Part shown: positions 2,075 to 8,533 of the stretch, piece after piece | Numbering within the stretch: the first letter of the stretch is position 1 | Layout of the letters: every line of letters begins with the position of its first letter | IMG/VR virus record: IMGVR_UViG_3300020166_000003 | Coordinates: 1-50,477 of that record | Direction: 5' to 3' (one strand) | From: a virus | Lineage: Duplodnaviria; Caudoviricetes | DNA: 50,477 nucleotides | The notes under the pieces: model-generated | The model's input: only the letters and a program-made list of their open reading frames with translations | Told to the model about the DNA's origin: nothing | Databases searched by the model: none | Program-made: the position numbers and the translations under genes

Positions 2075-2251
2075 ATGAGCGCACTAGAGCATTTAGTAAA
2101 GAGTAAGAAAGAAATAATGTACAATGAACTTATAAAATCTATAGGCAGTAAAAAGGCCTCCGATGCTGAGAAACATGCGGAGGCCTTGGAGCTTATAAGG
2201 GCTGGTATTTATTTCACCTATATGAATCAGAAGGGGATTATCTCCTCCTAA
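2075..2251 (+). CDS. Small hypothetical protein, 58 aa (MSALEHLVKSKK...), last gene of + arm
   Basis: Hand-translated; starts 1 nt after previous stop with GAGGG upstream; below ORF-track size cut-off. Confidence 0.5.
   Translation: MSALEHLVKSKKEIMYNELIKSIGSKKASDAEKHAEALELIRAGIYFTYMNQKGIISS
2150..2187 (-). terminator. Intrinsic terminator at the junction of the two arms
   Basis: GGCCTCCG (2155-2162) / CGGAGGCC (2178-2185) stem followed by T5 on the - strand, about 50 nt past the last structural gene. Confidence 0.7.
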
Positions 2252-4481
2252 TCCTATTCTCAAACCACTGGGCTTTAGCTTGTTCCTTTTTAGGATTATC
2301 CCTAGCTCCAGCCCAGTGATGTTTGGCATAGAACTTGCCTTTATCTACCTTGCCTTTTGCTATATCATCTAAAGGCGCGGCACCTTCTGATAGATCTGCT
2401 AGAAATATAGAGTCCTGTACTTCTTCTGGCAATGTACTGAAGTCTACGTTCTTCTTGGCGATTAGACTATCTAGCTCAGGAGTATCTTCTACTCCGTGGC
2501 GGGCTAAAAACCTTTTAGTCCTTTTAAGGGCTGTATTATTTGCACCACTTCCCCCTGCTACATCCTCTAGTTCAAACTGATACTTCCCTCTTCCTGCTCC
2601 TCTTGCTTCCCCGTCTATAATCTGTACAGCTTTGGGGTCGTTATTAGATTCTACATGGGCAACATCATCGCTATACTCTTTAATCCTTTCTACTTCTTCA
2701 TCGGTGTAACCACGCTTGTCTTTAATAGCCTTTAGTATCTTATCTGATAGTCTTGATTTCTTCACTGGTCTCCTTTTGATTGTGCCTTTCTGTGAGGTTG
2801 CGTTAGAATTTAAGCCCATTAGGTCTTGTCTTGTGGGTACTCCGTCAACAACCAAACCTCCTGAGCTATAGTTAGATCTAGGATCATTGCGATCCATTTT
2901 AGAGTTCCATATAGTTTTGAATTGAGCATTATCAAATGCAATGTAGCTCTCTCCTTTACTATCAGGTAGGGATTTCTCAGCGGCGTTCTTATACCTTATG
3001 CCATCAAAGCCCAAGTCCTTTAGCCAGTTTCTAAATTGCATGTTCATCTTCTGGTTAAACAAATCTCCCATTATCTCATCTAAGTACTCACCTTGACTTG
3101 GATTCTCGAACTGTCCTGCAGGGGCTGTAGGGTCTTTAAACCTAACAAACCTTTCATTCTTATCCCTTGCAAATAGCTTAGCTTCTTTATAGAGTTTGTC
3201 CATCTGCTTCTCTGCTTTCTTTGTCAGCTCTACTCCACTTCTCTGCACGGCAAGTTTAATCCGAGCAACAGTAGGTGCATCCTTTAAACGCCTTCCCATG
3301 TGCCAACCCAGCTTCATGTCGTCCATGTCTAAGGGCTTCTTTATTTGGACATAACCTTTAGTAATAGCATAGGGCTTAAGATCCATCACGCCCTCGCTCC
3401 CTGCAAGCCCTTCTCCAAAGCCTATACGGACTTGTTGATCCTCATACCTACCTAAGTAGTTCTCAAAGTAATTATCAATCTCAGGCTTAGTCACGGTGAG
3501 CTTGCCTTCATTAGCAGCAAAGGCTCTAAACCTATCGCCGTCCATCTGTGTTGCAATGATACTAGCTACTTGGGCTTCATCTTCACCTAGATGTATACCT
3601 ACCTCACGGGCCAGCACACCAGCTATGTCAGCATCTAAATCATGGTGGTCTGCCGTGGCTCTGTATACAGGTATCTTAACCTCAGAAGGTCTTAGAAACT
3701 TAGCAACATTATACTCCTTCTCCTCTTCTGCTTCCATGCGCTTTATGGCACTGGTCTCATGGAAGGGAGTAGGTATGTCCGTTTTGTTTTTATTAGGAAA
3801 GTTCTCTACTACTTCTCGTATAAACTTACCGTACTCTGCGTCCCGCGCCAGTCTCTGTACTAGCATAGCCCCTACTTTCTCTGAGCCTTCTTTGCCTAAG
3901 CGGCTGAAGGCTTCTGGGTGTAGTTTTTTAAGGGAGTCAGTAACATAGCCTGAGAGCTTCTGGGCTTGCCAGTCATTTAGGGGTTCGCCCTTAAACTTTT
4001 TCTCGTCTGGGAGTTCTCTGGGCTTAAACTTAGAATGGAAACTTCTGATGTCTCCATAAATCTCATTGATGTTATGGACTATAGAGCCGTCAGGGTCTAC
4101 CTCGTCAGCAAACACACTAGAAAGCTCAAAGGTTTCTCGCTCTCCTTCGGTGTAGCCCCTCCACTTCCCAAACTTCTCCCCGCCTATCTTGCCTTCAGGG
4201 GATTTCGCTATCATTTCACTTTTCAGCATGTCGTTCTTTTCTCTAAGGTAAGCCTCCACATTTAAAAGTATGTGCGCTGAACCCTCGTCCGTATCAAGGA
4301 CATCGTTTAGAGTATTCTTGTCAGAACCCTTCACATTTTTATAGGGCTTGGATACAGCCTCCACTAATCTTTGATTGGCTTCCTCTAAAACATCTTTAGA
4401 AATAAAACCATCTAAAGCATCATAAGCTGTATCAGTAAGCTCTTTAACTATTGAGTGGGTTACTTTTCCTAGTCCTGCCAT
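2238..4481 (-). CDS. Internal virion protein with ADP-ribosyltransferase-like (ART-PolyVal-type) domain and C-terminal lysozyme/transglycosylase-like domain
   Basis: IPVYRAT...GIHLG...YVQIKKPL...LGFDGIRYKN...SYIAFDNAQFKT pattern; C-terminal AHVESNNDP...GRGKYQF; last gene of virion module. Confidence 0.6.
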   Translation of the reverse strand: MAGLGKVTHSIVKELTDTAYDALDGFISKDVLEEANQRLVEAVSKPYKNVKGSDKNTLNDVLDTDEGSAHILLNVEAYLREKNDMLKSEMIAKSPEGKIGGEKFGKWRGYTEGERETFELSSVFADEVDPDGSIVHNINEIYGDIRSFHSKFKPRELPDEKKFKGEPLNDWQAQKLSGYVTDSLKKLHPEAFSRLGKEGSEKVGAMLVQRLARDAEYGKFIREVVENFPNKNKTDIPTPFHETSAIKRMEAEEEKEYNVAKFLRPSEVKIPVYRATADHHDLDADIAGVLAREVGIHLGEDEAQVASIIATQMDGDRFRAFAANEGKLTVTKPEIDNYFENYLGRYEDQQVRIGFGEGLAGSEGVMDLKPYAITKGYVQIKKPLDMDDMKLGWHMGRRLKDAPTVARIKLAVQRSGVELTKKAEKQMDKLYKEAKLFARDKNERFVRFKDPTAPAGQFENPSQGEYLDEIMGDLFNQKMNMQFRNWLKDLGFDGIRYKNAAEKSLPDSKGESYIAFDNAQFKTIWNSKMDRNDPRSNYSSGGLVVDGVPTRQDLMGLNSNATSQKGTIKRRPVKKSRLSDKILKAIKDKRGYTDEEVERIKEYSDDVAHVESNNDPKAVQIIDGEARGAGRGKYQFELEDVAGGSGANNTALKRTKRFLARHGVEDTPELDSLIAKKNVDFSTLPEEVQDSIFLADLSEGAAPLDDIAKGKVDKGKFYAKHHWAGARDNPKKEQAKAQWFENRIRRR

Positions 4482-7400
4482 TAGTAGTTCCTCTTAGTAT
4501 ATTTATCGTTCTCACCAGCAAGTTTCTTGTCTATCTCTCTTAGCATCCTCTTATACTTTTGCTTGCCTTCTCTACTAATTACTAGAGGATTAGTATATCC
4601 GGGAAATAATCTTTGACCTAAGAAGGTTACAGGGCCTTGAGACCATATTGTACCAACGTCACTACCCGCTACCCCAAAAGGTATGCCAAGATAAGGAGCG
4701 GGGTTGCCAATATACTTAGAGGCCTCTGCGGCTCTCCTAAACTGGTCTCCTGCTGTAGTGAACGCACCCCACCTTTCAATAGCTCTTAGGTATGCCATGC
4801 CCTCGCCATCTTCTTCCGAGGCTCCCTCGCTTCTGTAGTAGTTTAAGACCCTTTGCATCTCAGTCATTATTACGCCAGCAGCAACCACACGCGCCGCACC
4901 CTCAGGGGACTTATCGCGGTATAGTTTCTTGGCTGTCCCCTTCAATACAGTGTTAGTAAATGCTGTAGGGTATGTCATAAGTTGAAACATCCAAGCGGTC
5001 TTAGGGTTGTTGTATAGTGCAGGCTTCTGTCCTGACATGCTAGAAGGCTGTAAGATAACCTCATCTGTATATCTAGCTGCTCCCCTCTTTACAACACCAT
5101 AGAAATCGTCGTCTGTGCTTTGCCCAGCGTTATGCCAACGGATGCCTTCCTCTATGTTTACATTAAGCTCTTTGAGTTCATTGACTTTCTGAGTCATGCG
5201 CCTAGTCATAGGGCGGTCTCCGTGGGCCGCCAAGGCTTCTAGGTTACTTGCTATTAACTGTTTGCCTGTTACAAAACTAGTGGACTGTACAAACTTAGTC
5301 CACTGGTCAAGCAAAGTTAATTTAAAGAACGCATTAGTTACTTTATTCATGCCCTCGGAAGTAAGCTCATCGCCTACTAGCCTGTTAGAGATAGACATTA
5401 AGCCGTGCTCCAAAGCTAAGCCATTCTCATATAGCTCCCGTCTAGCCTCTTTAGCTGTTAGACCGAAGTTGTTTTTAAGTATACCTTCAGTATCACCAGT
5501 GAGGATCTTAAAACCTGAACGGCTAGCAGCCGCTAAGCCTTTAATGCTGTTTCTAAAGCCTGCCTTAGGCACGTTCAGCATAAACTCTGTTAAGCTTGTA
5601 ACGGTTGCCATGCCCAGTAACGAAACTCGTGTGGCTAAGCCGTAAGAGTTTGAAACCATTTCACCAGCAGGGCTAAAGCGGTCTAGCCCCTCGCTAGTTA
5701 CATTCTTGTATAAAGCCTCTAAGTGACGCTGCAAAGCTTCATACTCTTTTATACTTAGCTTCTCTCCTGCTTTCTCCCTTACTTGATCTATTATAGGATT
5801 GGCTATACGTTCCATGAACTCGTCAAGGTTAGAAACGCCTAAGCGTTCTTTCTTTGCTATAGCTTTAGAGGCTTGGTGAACATAAGAAGCCATAGTTACA
5901 CGAACGTCCTGCTCAAAAAACTCCGCAAACTTAGAATCATCTTTGATTTTATCCAGTGTACGCACCTTGCTAAAGAACTGAGTACTCATATTGCTGTCGT
6001 CTAGTTGGTTTGCTTTGTCCATCATGCTCTTAAAGATAGCATCTGCTTCAGCCATATCAGCCGCTTGTCCCTCGGAGACTAAAAGGCCTTTAAATTTCTT
6101 AGGGTTAGCCATGATGTGTTCTCTATGCCACATACGGTGGACATAGTTAGGGAGCTTCTCGCGGATAAGCCCATTAGATAATAGCTTATCACCTATTTCG
6201 CTATAGAGGTTTTTCAAATTAGCCCCTATAGTATTAGCCATCTTGTTCCCTACGTTCTCTCCTCGCATAGCTCTGTGTACAAGATCATTAGCTTCAGCGT
6301 CCATCTTGCCTAGTGTCTTGTTTCTTAAGCCTTCTTTGGCTATAGGCTCTACCATAGACATATACTTACCCATCCAGTTCCCGCTGTAGCTCTTGTATAC
6401 TTCAAACAAGCTAGGGGGTATGTAGTCTTGTGCCCCACTCCAAACCTTTGCAAACTCTGGGGATATGGCTGACTGTAGTTCTCTTGCCATAGCAGATATT
6501 TTAGCGTAGGCAGTTAAAAATCCAGGCTGTTTGCCCCAAAGGATTGTAGAGGTCGCACGACTCCCCAAGCGATTAAGGATACCGCCTACCTCACCCTCTA
6601 CGCCTTCTTCACTAACAGCCGCTACGCTTCCCGAAGGGGGAGCAGGAGCTTCAGGAGGTCTAGGGCCGTCTGGGCCGTCTGTAGGGCTTTCTCCGTCTGG
6701 GCCTACGCCTCTAGTTTTAGTAGGGGTAGTTGCATTAGCTGAGGCTCCTCTAGAGGTTACAGTAGCGATCTTCTCGGATACTAAATCTAGGGTCTCTTCG
6801 CCTCCACCGTTCCGTGCTACATAGTCTCTGATCTCTTTTAGTTTTTTAATGTCCTCAGGAAACAAACGCTTGCCTACCGACAAAGCCTCTTCCATCGCTG
6901 CCGTGACTGAGGCTATAGCTTTATCTATGCTCTCAGATTCCATGCTAATAGACTCTGTTAATTTTCTAAGATAGTCTACTGTCTCGTCTACCATCTCAGG
7001 AGTAGCCTGTTCAGCAGGGACAACATCCTCGATGTCCATTTGTGTCTTTAGGTTAGGACGTTCTTCGGGCAGTAGTTTAGTCCTGAACAACTCTAATTGT
7101 TCTTTAGGCTCTACGCCCTTTTTAGGCTTAGCCATGTCCTTGAACATATCTAACTGCTTCATCAGATCTTCGTCGCCTGTCTCTTTTACAAAAGCTTCAA
7201 AGGCATCCATCTGTTCTGTAAGCTCTAGTCTCCGAGAGGATAGCTCCTCGGGGGAGAACAAATCTAACTGGTCTTTTATAGGCTTCTTAGCCGCTACCTG
7301 CTTTAGTAAATCCATCTGCTCAGTAATCTGTCTACTTGCTTGAGGAGAAACTTTATCGGCAAAGGTCGCTGCCGCCTCTACAAGACTGCTTTTGCCTGTA

Positions 7401-8533
7401 CTTGTGTTGAACAAATCTAATTGCTCTGCAAATTCACCTGCCTGTTCTTCAGGGTAAGCATCCTCGAAAAAATCAGCCTGTCTCCTGCCCCTAGATTTCT
7501 CTTCTGGACTTATGCCAGCCTTGAATAAATCTCTTTGCAGTGGAGTAGTAGGCTCAGGAAACATATCCATTTGCCTAGATACATTAACTACACCAACATC
7601 AACATTATCTAACGCCCTGCTAAACACAGGGTCGTCCAGTAGACGGTTAACCACCTTGCCCATAACTCTAGGGCTTTGTTCTGTAATCAGAGGAGCTACC
7701 GCCGCCTTACGCATGAAGGGGGATGCCGCTACCTGTAAGACTTTACCAGCCCCTACTCCGAGACCAAAGGCCCCTAAGGTTTCTGGAATACTTATCTCGT
7801 CTTTAAGGCCTATAGCAACGTCACGCTTCTGTTGTATTGCGGAATCTGCGGCAGCCCACGATCCTGTGACCAGAGGGAAACCAAACTTACTGGTCATGTC
7901 TCCCGCCGCTAGGCCTCTCACAGCCATCTTCTTTGCTACATTCTTAGCAGCAGCAAAGGCTCCTGCCTGTGCGGTACCCTTAACGCCCGCCATAGCCCCT
8001 GCCTGAGCCGCAGTACTTCCACCGCCTGTCGCCAAGCCCAAGAGTACGCCGATAATAGTTTCAGGTGCTGTTATAAGATCAGTACCAATATCAACAAACG
8101 CTGACCATTGCTCATTCCCGCCCCTAATAACTGCTCTGTCAAAAGACTCGCTAAGTTTAGCGGCTTTTAGTTTAATGTGCTCAGGGGCATTTTCAAGTCT
8201 GCCTGCTTCTGATAGCGCAGTAAGCATCCTGTACCTACTATCACGCATATCTTCTACGGGGTCAAAACTCCCCCAGCTACTCCCTGCTTCCATCCACGCA
8301 TCTTTAGTGGTCTCTTGAGAGGCTAGATAGTCGAATACTTCTTTACTGTCTTCCCAGTTGTCAGCACGCCACTCATCCATTGTAGGGATATGCTCAATCG
8401 TAGGGGGTCTGGAGAGTCCAGAGGTTTCAGGAAGCCATCCCTTCTCGACGTACTCAGCTTTTTCAGCATCCATAGCATCAAGTTCTGCTAAGCTATATAC
8501 ATGAGGATCGTACTTACTTCTTTGTTCAGCCAT
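4481..8533 (-). CDS. Large internal virion (ejection) protein, 1350 aa
   Basis: Size, position after tail/lysis genes, Gly/Ala-rich hydrophobic N-terminal segments, helical C-terminal half. Confidence 0.7.
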   Translation of the reverse strand: MAEQRSKYDPHVYSLAELDAMDAEKAEYVEKGWLPETSGLSRPPTIEHIPTMDEWRADNWEDSKEVFDYLASQETTKDAWMEAGSSWGSFDPVEDMRDSRYRMLTALSEAGRLENAPEHIKLKAAKLSESFDRAVIRGGNEQWSAFVDIGTDLITAPETIIGVLLGLATGGGSTAAQAGAMAGVKGTAQAGAFAAAKNVAKKMAVRGLAAGDMTSKFGFPLVTGSWAAADSAIQQKRDVAIGLKDEISIPETLGAFGLGVGAGKVLQVAASPFMRKAAVAPLITEQSPRVMGKVVNRLLDDPVFSRALDNVDVGVVNVSRQMDMFPEPTTPLQRDLFKAGISPEEKSRGRRQADFFEDAYPEEQAGEFAEQLDLFNTSTGKSSLVEAAATFADKVSPQASRQITEQMDLLKQVAAKKPIKDQLDLFSPEELSSRRLELTEQMDAFEAFVKETGDEDLMKQLDMFKDMAKPKKGVEPKEQLELFRTKLLPEERPNLKTQMDIEDVVPAEQATPEMVDETVDYLRKLTESISMESESIDKAIASVTAAMEEALSVGKRLFPEDIKKLKEIRDYVARNGGGEETLDLVSEKIATVTSRGASANATTPTKTRGVGPDGESPTDGPDGPRPPEAPAPPSGSVAAVSEEGVEGEVGGILNRLGSRATSTILWGKQPGFLTAYAKISAMARELQSAISPEFAKVWSGAQDYIPPSLFEVYKSYSGNWMGKYMSMVEPIAKEGLRNKTLGKMDAEANDLVHRAMRGENVGNKMANTIGANLKNLYSEIGDKLLSNGLIREKLPNYVHRMWHREHIMANPKKFKGLLVSEGQAADMAEADAIFKSMMDKANQLDDSNMSTQFFSKVRTLDKIKDDSKFAEFFEQDVRVTMASYVHQASKAIAKKERLGVSNLDEFMERIANPIIDQVREKAGEKLSIKEYEALQRHLEALYKNVTSEGLDRFSPAGEMVSNSYGLATRVSLLGMATVTSLTEFMLNVPKAGFRNSIKGLAAASRSGFKILTGDTEGILKNNFGLTAKEARRELYENGLALEHGLMSISNRLVGDELTSEGMNKVTNAFFKLTLLDQWTKFVQSTSFVTGKQLIASNLEALAAHGDRPMTRRMTQKVNELKELNVNIEEGIRWHNAGQSTDDDFYGVVKRGAARYTDEVILQPSSMSGQKPALYNNPKTAWMFQLMTYPTAFTNTVLKGTAKKLYRDKSPEGAARVVAAGVIMTEMQRVLNYYRSEGASEEDGEGMAYLRAIERWGAFTTAGDQFRRAAEASKYIGNPAPYLGIPFGVAGSDVGTIWSQGPVTFLGQRLFPGYTNPLVISREGKQKYKRMLREIDKKLAGENDKYTKRNY

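Follow-up and report, generated by a model that had tools for sequence, protein, structure and literature searches.

A viral genome of 50,477 nucleotides (IMG/VR record IMGVR_UViG_3300020166_000003; Duplodnaviria, Caudoviricetes), which at its full length is the window analysed here, encodes on its minus strand a protein of 1350 amino acids (P0001) with ten pentapeptides arrayed along the variable linker between two conserved domains. The pentapeptides resemble the motif with which bacterial proteins bind the beta sliding clamp (DnaN), they are the one part of the repeating unit that has been retained, and peptides of the same kind have been gained in the same linker of diverged relatives. Judging from sequence comparisons, we put the chances at roughly even that this is a multivalent clamp-binding array on a protein ejected from the virion, as had been suggested in an earlier inspection of the letters without database searches (the sequence-only reading).

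A script verified the ten pentapeptides that the sequence-only reading had listed, with glutamines at residues 321, 333, 352, 371, 406, 422, 441, 460, 479 and 498 and with the coding sequence running from nucleotide 7573 down to 7028. Its observation that 6 of the 9 spacings are exactly 19 residues was also confirmed, the Gln-to-Gln distances across the array being 12, 19, 19, 35, 16, 19, 19, 19 and 19. The array and its units are located as follows.

7028-7573, minus strand: array of ten Q-x-[D/E]-x-x pentapeptides, residues 321-502 (script count); 7 of 10 fit definitions of the clamp-binding motif (CBM)
7559-7573, minus strand: motif 1, QMDMF, residues 321-325
7523-7537, minus strand: motif 2, QRDLF, residues 333-337; fits Q-x-[DE]-[LM]-F
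7466-7480, minus strand: motif 3, QADFF, residues 352-356; off-consensus at position 4
7409-7423, minus strand: motif 4, QLDLF, residues 371-375; optimal clamp peptide according to a review
7361-7375, minus strand: AAATF, residues 387-391, probably a decayed unit (assigned by eye), 19 residues ahead of motif 5
7304-7318, minus strand: motif 5, QMDLL, residues 406-410
7256-7270, minus strand: motif 6, QLDLF, residues 422-426
7199-7213, minus strand: motif 7, QMDAF, residues 441-445; off-consensus at position 4
7142-7156, minus strand: motif 8, QLDMF, residues 460-464
7085-7099, minus strand: motif 9, QLELF, residues 479-483
7028-7042, minus strand: motif 10, QMDIE, residues 498-502; degenerate; in the alignment with the relative P0003 it falls on that protein's short linker

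The sole 35-residue gap contains AAATF, which would make it an eleventh unit.

The pattern Q-x-[DE]-[LMFAI]-[FL] occurs 9 times in P0001, compared with a mean of 0.24 and a maximum of 4 in 20,000 shuffles of the whole protein; shuffling of residues 315-510 alone gave a mean of 0.15 and a maximum of 3. Pairwise identity between units is 0.59 for the pentapeptide versus 0.09 for the flanks at the protein level, which bears out the earlier statement that the linkers are divergent while the pentapeptide is kept, and 0.64 versus 0.30 at the DNA level. Tandem Repeats Finder detected no 57-nucleotide DNA repeat over the array, and the glutamines are encoded by five CAA and five CAG codons. Since there is no DNA repeat and the flanks have diverged, the units are old, with the pentapeptide alone retained. 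The array region is hydrophilic and acidic (mean hydropathy -0.75, net charge -13), and 9 of its 12 phenylalanines lie within motifs.

We compared the units with two published definitions of the CBM, both sources being cited here and below from a part of their text: Q-phi-x-[L/M]-[F/L], as given in a review (PMC11139829), and Q-x-[D/E]-[L/M]-F, the consensus of the Mor/MuC family as stated in the main paper, the underlying alignment being in the supplement (PMC12867686). Seven units conform to at least one of these definitions, while QADFF, QMDAF and QMDIE do not. According to the review, QLDLF, which occurs twice in the array, is the strongest clamp-binding peptide, and the fit into the pocket of the clamp depends above all on the Leu/Met-Phe pair (PMC11139829). 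Judged by their titles and the beginnings of their abstracts, the papers listed for QLDLF all concern the clamp, clamp-using polymerases or clamp inhibitors.

To place the array in its family, we used 80 loci with 31-42% identity out of 109 confirmed relatives; these relatives came from a search for related loci, as compared with only 6 clusters from a protein-level homologue search. The linker was bounded by hidden Markov models (HMMs) of the two flanking blocks, both of which were present in 82 of the 87 family proteins. After five proteins lacking one block and five with a partial match to the N-domain (L216, L229, L230, L232 and L241) had been left out, the final set contained 77 proteins in 33 linker clusters. 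The linker ranges from 42 to 305 residues across the family and is itself unalignable between the conserved N- and C-domains. At 259 residues, the linker of P0001 is the longest among proteins with a complete N-domain match, and the array fills it.

Under the strict core Q-x-x-[LM]-F, motifs were found in 5 of the 33 linker clusters, each time in at least two copies.

P0001 linker: 6 motifs under the strict core
L220 linker: 4 motifs, QGELF, QFDMF, QGDLF and QVKMF
L195 and L203 linker: 2 motifs, QLDLF and QGELF
L222 linker: 2 motifs, QLGLF and QTNLF
L227 linker: 2 motifs, QIDMF and QLNMF, plus QLDLI

One of these, QLGLF, is also the motif of Escherichia coli Pol II. With P0001 excluded, the linkers contain 10 motifs in 2885 residues (3.47 per 1000), distributed over 4 of 32 clusters, as compared with 3 motifs in the 51,653 residues of the remainder of the same proteins (0.058 per 1000). 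Composition-preserving shuffles of the linkers yielded a mean of 0.42 motifs, and none of 5000 reached 10. Control patterns that were reversed, permuted or swapped at the first residue occurred 0-4 times in the linkers, and those with E, N or K in the first position 0-1 times, versus 10 with Q. In 363 other open reading frames (ORFs) of the same loci and the window there were 53 matches to Q-x-x-[LM]-F (0.34 per 1000 residues), and in none of these ORFs did two matches fall within 40 residues. By hand count, 9 of the 10 gained motifs fit one of the two CBM definitions. Positions 1, 4 and 5 are fixed in the gained motifs and positions 2-3 are free, which is the form of constraint seen in CBMs. 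The motif-bearing linkers of the other lineages are rich in acidic residues, proline and threonine. As a separate observation, the motif density in the other ORFs exceeds that of the family protein's folded regions.

We also examined the distribution of the motifs on a maximum-likelihood tree inferred from the C-domain of 33 representatives with a quick search. The five motif-bearing lineages require five changes on this tree, all of them forced by well-supported branches, and each lineage is nested among motif-free relatives; L222 and L190, for example, form one sister pair and P0001 and P0003 another. This scattered distribution therefore indicates repeated independent gain. Taken together, the conservation of the pentapeptide alone and its repeated gain in the same linker argue for selection on the peptide itself.

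If the array binds the clamp, the course of events might be as follows. The protein would be carried inside the capsid and, at infection, ejected before the DNA or together with it, its hydrophobic N-domain would engage the inner membrane, and the acidic, flexible linker would be exposed in the cytoplasm, presenting seven to nine clamp-binding peptides. Each Q-phi-[D/E]-[L/M]-F motif would insert into the hydrophobic pocket of DnaN, as the peptides of polymerases and repair proteins do. There are two peptide pockets per clamp dimer, and a single dimer could take up adjacent motifs, or several dimers could be bridged by them, giving high-avidity capture of free or DNA-loaded clamps. Such capture would occur where the DNA enters the cell and ahead of all phage gene expression. 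Host polymerases, the clamp loader and Hda would then face competition for the clamp, and the protein would come to lie beside replicating DNA. We infer each of these elements, that is ejection, cytoplasmic exposure, clamp binding and the effect on the host. As far as can be read from the motifs, the outcome may be either inhibition, with the array serving as a sponge for clamps, or mere tethering. More tentatively, and with the balance tipping against it, virion-delivered multivalent clamp-binding arrays could represent a recurrent, convergent phage strategy that paralyses host replication and repair or docks the incoming genome and its escort proteins onto the replisome.

Several observations weigh against clamp binding. 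Glutamine and the acidic residue are constant in 10 of 10 units, whereas the Leu/Met-Phe pair is lost in QADFF, QMDAF and QMDIE; decay of this pair next to constant Gln and Asp/Glu is not what pure selection for the clamp pocket predicts. Moreover, 28 of the 33 linker clusters lack Q-x-x-[LM]-F, among them that of P0003, the closest non-identical relative (59% identity), which has a short linker and no array, and the array is therefore dispensable for the core role of the protein. It is confined to one shallow lineage comprising P0001, the fragment P0008 and P0002, a protein 96% identical to P0001 with an identical array. Between P0001 and P0002, 48 positions differ and none of these is in residues 316-510, where 6.9 would be expected (P about 0.0005-0.001). 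This counts in favour of the proposal, but the absence of substitutions also spans the linkers between the motifs, so that recent exchange instead of constraint could be the cause. In 13 of the 33 linker clusters (seen in L176, L181-L185, L197, L198, L202, L204, L215, L224 and L225), the same place holds a single Q-less element of the form phi-[FY]-[DE]-E-x-phi-E-G-E-[WFY]-I-P-[AS]-S-G, for example GLELFDEGIEGEWIPSSG. Its start resembles xxELF or xxDLF without the glutamine, and the first motif of L220 overlies it; by this resemblance, the Q-motifs may have arisen out of an element that is older in the family and has a different partner. The idea of a pure sponge would be strained, too, if the copy number were like that of T7 gp16 (about 3 per virion), which gives only tens of sites, to which copies newly made late in infection would add many. 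Finally, a LysM peptidoglycan-binding domain was identified in the C-terminal extension of all three fused relatives scanned (E about 1e-11 to 1e-12; residues 2165-2207 in L195, 1806-1849 in L220 and 2168-2210 in L203), and part of the protein therefore works in the periplasm.

The helices in a structure prediction are a further point on this side. CBMs bind the clamp in an extended conformation, whereas AlphaFold2 (AF2), run on residues 290-560 as a single sequence with no alignment, which is a weak test, drew helices nearly throughout the predicted model of the array. There was no confident fold: the mean predicted local distance difference test score (pLDDT) was 43.6, with 208 of 271 residues below 50, and the predicted template modelling score (pTM) was 0.20. 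In favour of the proposal, the linker of L220 was modelled mostly as low-confidence coil, its motif-bearing part included (pLDDT 26-43 across model residues 1-108). We also docked residues 415-486, with four motifs, to two copies of DnaN from E. coli, which served as a stand-in for the host clamp. The complex scored 0.65 in three of three runs, unrelated 75-residue controls scored 0.66 and 0.00, and replacement of the clamp gave 0.00; these scores are neither support for nor evidence against clamp binding.

The clamp-binding proposal has thus kept its consensus match and acquired the pentapeptide-only conservation and the repeated gain, but not a conserved array. The motif counts in homologues that the sequence-only reading had called for are split in the same way, and lack of conservation in homologues, which it had named as refuting, applies in part: 28 of 33 linker types have no array, while four other lineages carry two to four motifs. 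The main rival, which we regard as rather unlikely, is that the pentapeptide acts as a short linear motif towards some non-clamp partner, which could be another virion or ejection protein or some other host factor, that it derives from the Q-less element and that its likeness to a CBM is coincidental. The reasons to retain it are that element, present in 13 of 33 clusters and overlaid by the first Q-motif of L220, and the decay of the Leu-Phe pair in three units with constant Gln and Asp/Glu; in addition, the array was singled out from a very large scan for its CBM-like look, so that a chance look-alike is conceivable. Set against this, the gains converge on an initial glutamine and a closing [LM]-F, a CBM-like constraint, with 0-1 matches to the E-, N- or K-first patterns versus 10, and they include the exact textbook CBMs QLDLF and QLGLF, the latter that of Pol II. 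Convergence in diverged phages would also need a partner that is conserved among them.

A structural role, with the array acting as a helical spacer whose 19-residue units determine how long or how flexible the ejection device is and whose conserved residues pack or cap, would agree with the helices drawn by AF2, with the 6 of 9 spacings of exactly 19, and with family linkers of 42-305 residues that often contain repeats or coiled segments, as in P0007 and the L246 cluster. We nevertheless consider it improbable, since conservation is limited to five contiguous residues and the flank identity of 0.09 is at the random level, whereas folded repeats conserve positions across the unit, as does a coiled-coil-like repeat in the locus L160 described below. 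The low pLDDT (43.6) and pTM (0.20) and the lack of a Pfam or PDB match likewise speak against a folded repeat, P0003 manages without the array, and the motif linkers of other lineages are rich in proline, threonine and acidic residues, that of L220 being mostly predicted coil. Least probable, in our view, is that a short unit has multiplied neutrally, and without a function of its own, in a linker that tolerates it. The site does accept large insertions and deletions, and the array is restricted to P0001, P0002 and the fragment P0008; however, the units are old, with no DNA repeat and a flank identity of 0.30 at the DNA level, and the pentapeptide has nevertheless been retained. Four other lineages have gained this peptide as well, and the 195 residues compared between P0001 and P0002 show 0 substitutions where 6.9 were expected.

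The clamp-binding peptide as such is already known, as are phage proteins that use or block the clamp. The array has the same pentapeptide grammar as the bacterial clamp clients Pol III alpha (QADMF), Pol II, Pol IV, Pol V and Hda (PMC11139829), for which the Dalrymple consensus is QL[S/D]LF (PMC11139829). The motifs of these clients reside in tails and loops outside the folded domains, comparable to the position of the array in a linker, but the clients are replication and repair enzymes with one or two motifs each (PMC11139829), as against the seven to ten that share a single virion-protein linker in P0001. Eukaryotic multi-PIP-box proteins also have several clamp peptides per flexible chain, which have been proposed to act as avidity tethers (PMC11139829); unlike the array, they are cellular enzymes that bind PCNA with two or three motifs (PMC11139829).

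Among phage proteins, MuC of phage Mu uses two CBMs, QHDLF and QPDLF, to bind the host clamp, and this binding makes over-expressed MuC lethal to E. coli (PMC12867686). The MuC/Mor proteins share the Q-x-[D/E]-[L/M]-F motif with the array, but MuC is a small, non-virion transcription activator that is made after infection and uses the clamp to switch on late genes (PMC12867686); it has no array, and we see no sequence relationship to P0001. Gp168 of the Staphylococcus phage Twort also targets the host beta clamp and halts replication; the title of its paper places it in the DNA-sliding channel rather than the peptide pocket, and it differs further in being a small, early, non-virion protein (PMC8565349).

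For large ejected proteins, the nearest parallels are T7 gp16, or IVP-D, and the N4 virion RNA polymerase, which resides in an IVP-D homologue: each is a large protein at the end of an operon with an inserted accessory module, directed to the cytoplasm in these proteins (PMC4819975), and P0001 resembles them in size, gene position and the presence of an insert. The module of P0001 is a peptide array, unlike the enzyme modules of the IVP-D relatives. Polyvalent proteins of phages and conjugative elements (Iyer et al. 2017; PMC5512222) are giant, virion-associated, multi-module proteins that are predicted to be injected, and relatives of P0001 reach 1800-2650 residues. No polyvalent-protein domain (LPD, ART-PolyVal or MuF) was detected above the Pfam threshold in P0001, and neither the clamp nor DnaN appears in the main text of the paper on these proteins (PMC5512222). 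Among named atlas clusters, those nearest to P0001 have LPD38, LPD3 or PBECR3; the LPD38 and LPD3 neighbours score 0.90-0.94 with 138-158 shared features, and all serve as leads only.

In the literature searched, which lies mostly outside subscription journals, we found no joint description of a CBM and a virion or, among the matches listed, of a CBM and an internal virion protein; the sole co-mention of a sliding clamp and an ejection protein was in a review of T4 head assembly. Nor did we find a description of a multivalent clamp-peptide array on a protein that enters with the DNA. If binding is true, a pre-made protein would engage the hub of host replication at time zero of the infection, which would be a novel form of early takeover and would add a new module class to the ejection proteins of podoviruses. 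The five independent gains provide a natural experiment, with matched relatives that have 0, 2, 4 and 9 motifs, and a naturally optimised, high-avidity clamp binder may be of interest to developers of antibacterial peptides that target the clamp.

The domains of P0001 and the genes next to it are arranged as follows.

4481-8533, minus strand: coding sequence of P0001, 1350 residues, virion/ejection-type protein (ORF list, translation, PHROG matches)
7634-8533, minus strand: conserved N-terminal domain, residues 1-300 (family alignment A1; HMM of residues 90-300)
6809-7027, minus strand: remainder of the variable linker, residues 503-575, ending at the conserved GGGE anchor (A1; HMM-defined linker, residues 301-559/575)
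4484-6808, minus strand: conserved C-terminal domain, residues 576-1350, from the GGGE block (invariant A1 columns; PHROG 7348; 80 related viral loci)
2238-4481, minus strand: downstream gene for 747 residues, matching positions 1339-1664 of PHROG 7348, a later part of the same profile as P0001
8536-11155, minus strand: upstream genes for 672 and 199 residues (ORF list; no family matches)

The ORF of P0001 is the largest in the window. An HMM of its residues 90-300 matches 82 of the 87 family proteins, and this N-terminal domain contains two Gly/Ala-rich hydrophobic stretches (residues 153-178 and 252-283; Kyte-Doolittle peaks 1.26-1.46) that, to judge from their composition, might insert into a membrane. 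Residues 638-1341 match positions 358-1067 of PHROG 7348, a profile of 2564 positions labelled 'endolysin', and P0001 also matches PHROG 684, 'virion structural protein'. Weak tblastn matches in cultured phages fall in genes annotated as 'particle protein' or 'virion structural protein'. No Pfam family was found above threshold in P0001, and a PDB profile search gave nothing below E 0.3. Among the relatives in the viral collection, fusions of 1800-2650 residues are common, and because the counterpart of the 747-residue gene is joined in them to the P0001-like part, this gene appears to have been split off here. It has a sub-threshold match to ART-PolyVal, an ADP-ribosyltransferase (E 0.0026; 19 bits versus a cut-off of 31.2).

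P0001 ends the structural operon, after the genes for 199 and then 672 residues. The genes for T7 gp14, gp15 and gp16 are 591, 2244 and 3957 nucleotides long, and the series of 199, 672 and 1350 residues is alike to them in size and order only; the T7 record gives gp16 at about 3 copies per virion. The gp16/IVP-D homologues have been called 'notoriously difficult to identify' by Hardies et al. (PMC4819975), and an hhalign comparison of family alignment A1 with T7 gp16 revealed no homology (probability 0.2%, E 0.31). The label 'internal virion protein' in the sequence-only reading is accordingly backed by size and gene order but not by detectable homology to gp16. Considering gene order, size, the annotations of weak homologues and the LysM domains of fused relatives, it is a reasonable inference that P0001 is an ejected internal virion protein.

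Another kind of insert is found at the same site in P0007 (residues 263-428) and in L246-L248 and L250-L252, where the linker contains three tandem repeats of about 33 residues (ATAPEKFRLAIEQA...-type) that conserve the whole unit.

Searches for further arrays covered both proteins and DNA. When the array alone was compared with 1.84 billion representatives, the matches were the near-identical fragment P0008 and one TPR protein, with no related array among them; the TPR match (E 9e-6) was rejected as a relative, as it rested on linker periodicity alone and contained no Q-x-D-x-F motifs. Back-translated DNA scans work only for a set spacing and where the first motif has an xTG codon. They miss most real cases, the motif-bearing homologues in the P0001 family among them. 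A scan for two motifs 19 codons apart yielded 14 loci in viral contigs, and one for three motifs with gaps of 21-51 nucleotides yielded 11 viral loci, at least 117 metagenome stretches and 32 genome-contig loci. Filtering of 173 loci left 24 candidates in ORFs of at least 150 residues, all of which except L160 were DNA tandem repeats or non-coding frames. L160, on a contig of an alphaproteobacterial metagenome-assembled genome, has at least four units of about 22 residues that start with QLDIF or QVEIF (frame +1, around residue 974 of a 1737-residue ORF); it was rejected as a motif array since it is a coiled-coil-like repeat with conserved linkers. In four of 19 cultured-phage matches that were checked, namely Vibrio KIT05, Pseudoalteromonas Slicky01, Escherichia EC.W1-9 and Pseudomonas tf, Q-x-x-[LM]-[FL] was absent from the homologous protein.

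The record represents a complete genome with direct terminal repeats. The minus strand carries the structural genes (terminase, portal, major capsid protein, tail fibres), and the plus strand the replication genes (primase-helicase, family A DNA polymerase and ribonucleotide reductase). The capsid protein and the polymerase are nearest, at 45-55% identity, to those of the Pelagibacter phages HTVC115P, 103P and 104P, the Puniceispirillum phage HMO-2011 and the Roseobacter CRP phages, and the virus is therefore an uncultured marine podovirus of the HMO-2011 type. No tRNA genes were detected in the 50,477-bp genome, and a search of the window for a phage-encoded clamp gene (PF00712) found none. 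Outside the array there are only 2 CBM-type motifs genome-wide (six-frame ORFs of at least 60 residues), neither of them in a replication protein. The lack of a clamp gene and of such motifs in the replication proteins counts in favour of the clamp-binding proposal. Two ORFs of 103 and 164 residues on the plus strand (7032-7343 and 7512-8006) overlap the array region in antisense and are probably spurious, because the neighbouring genes are all on the minus strand.

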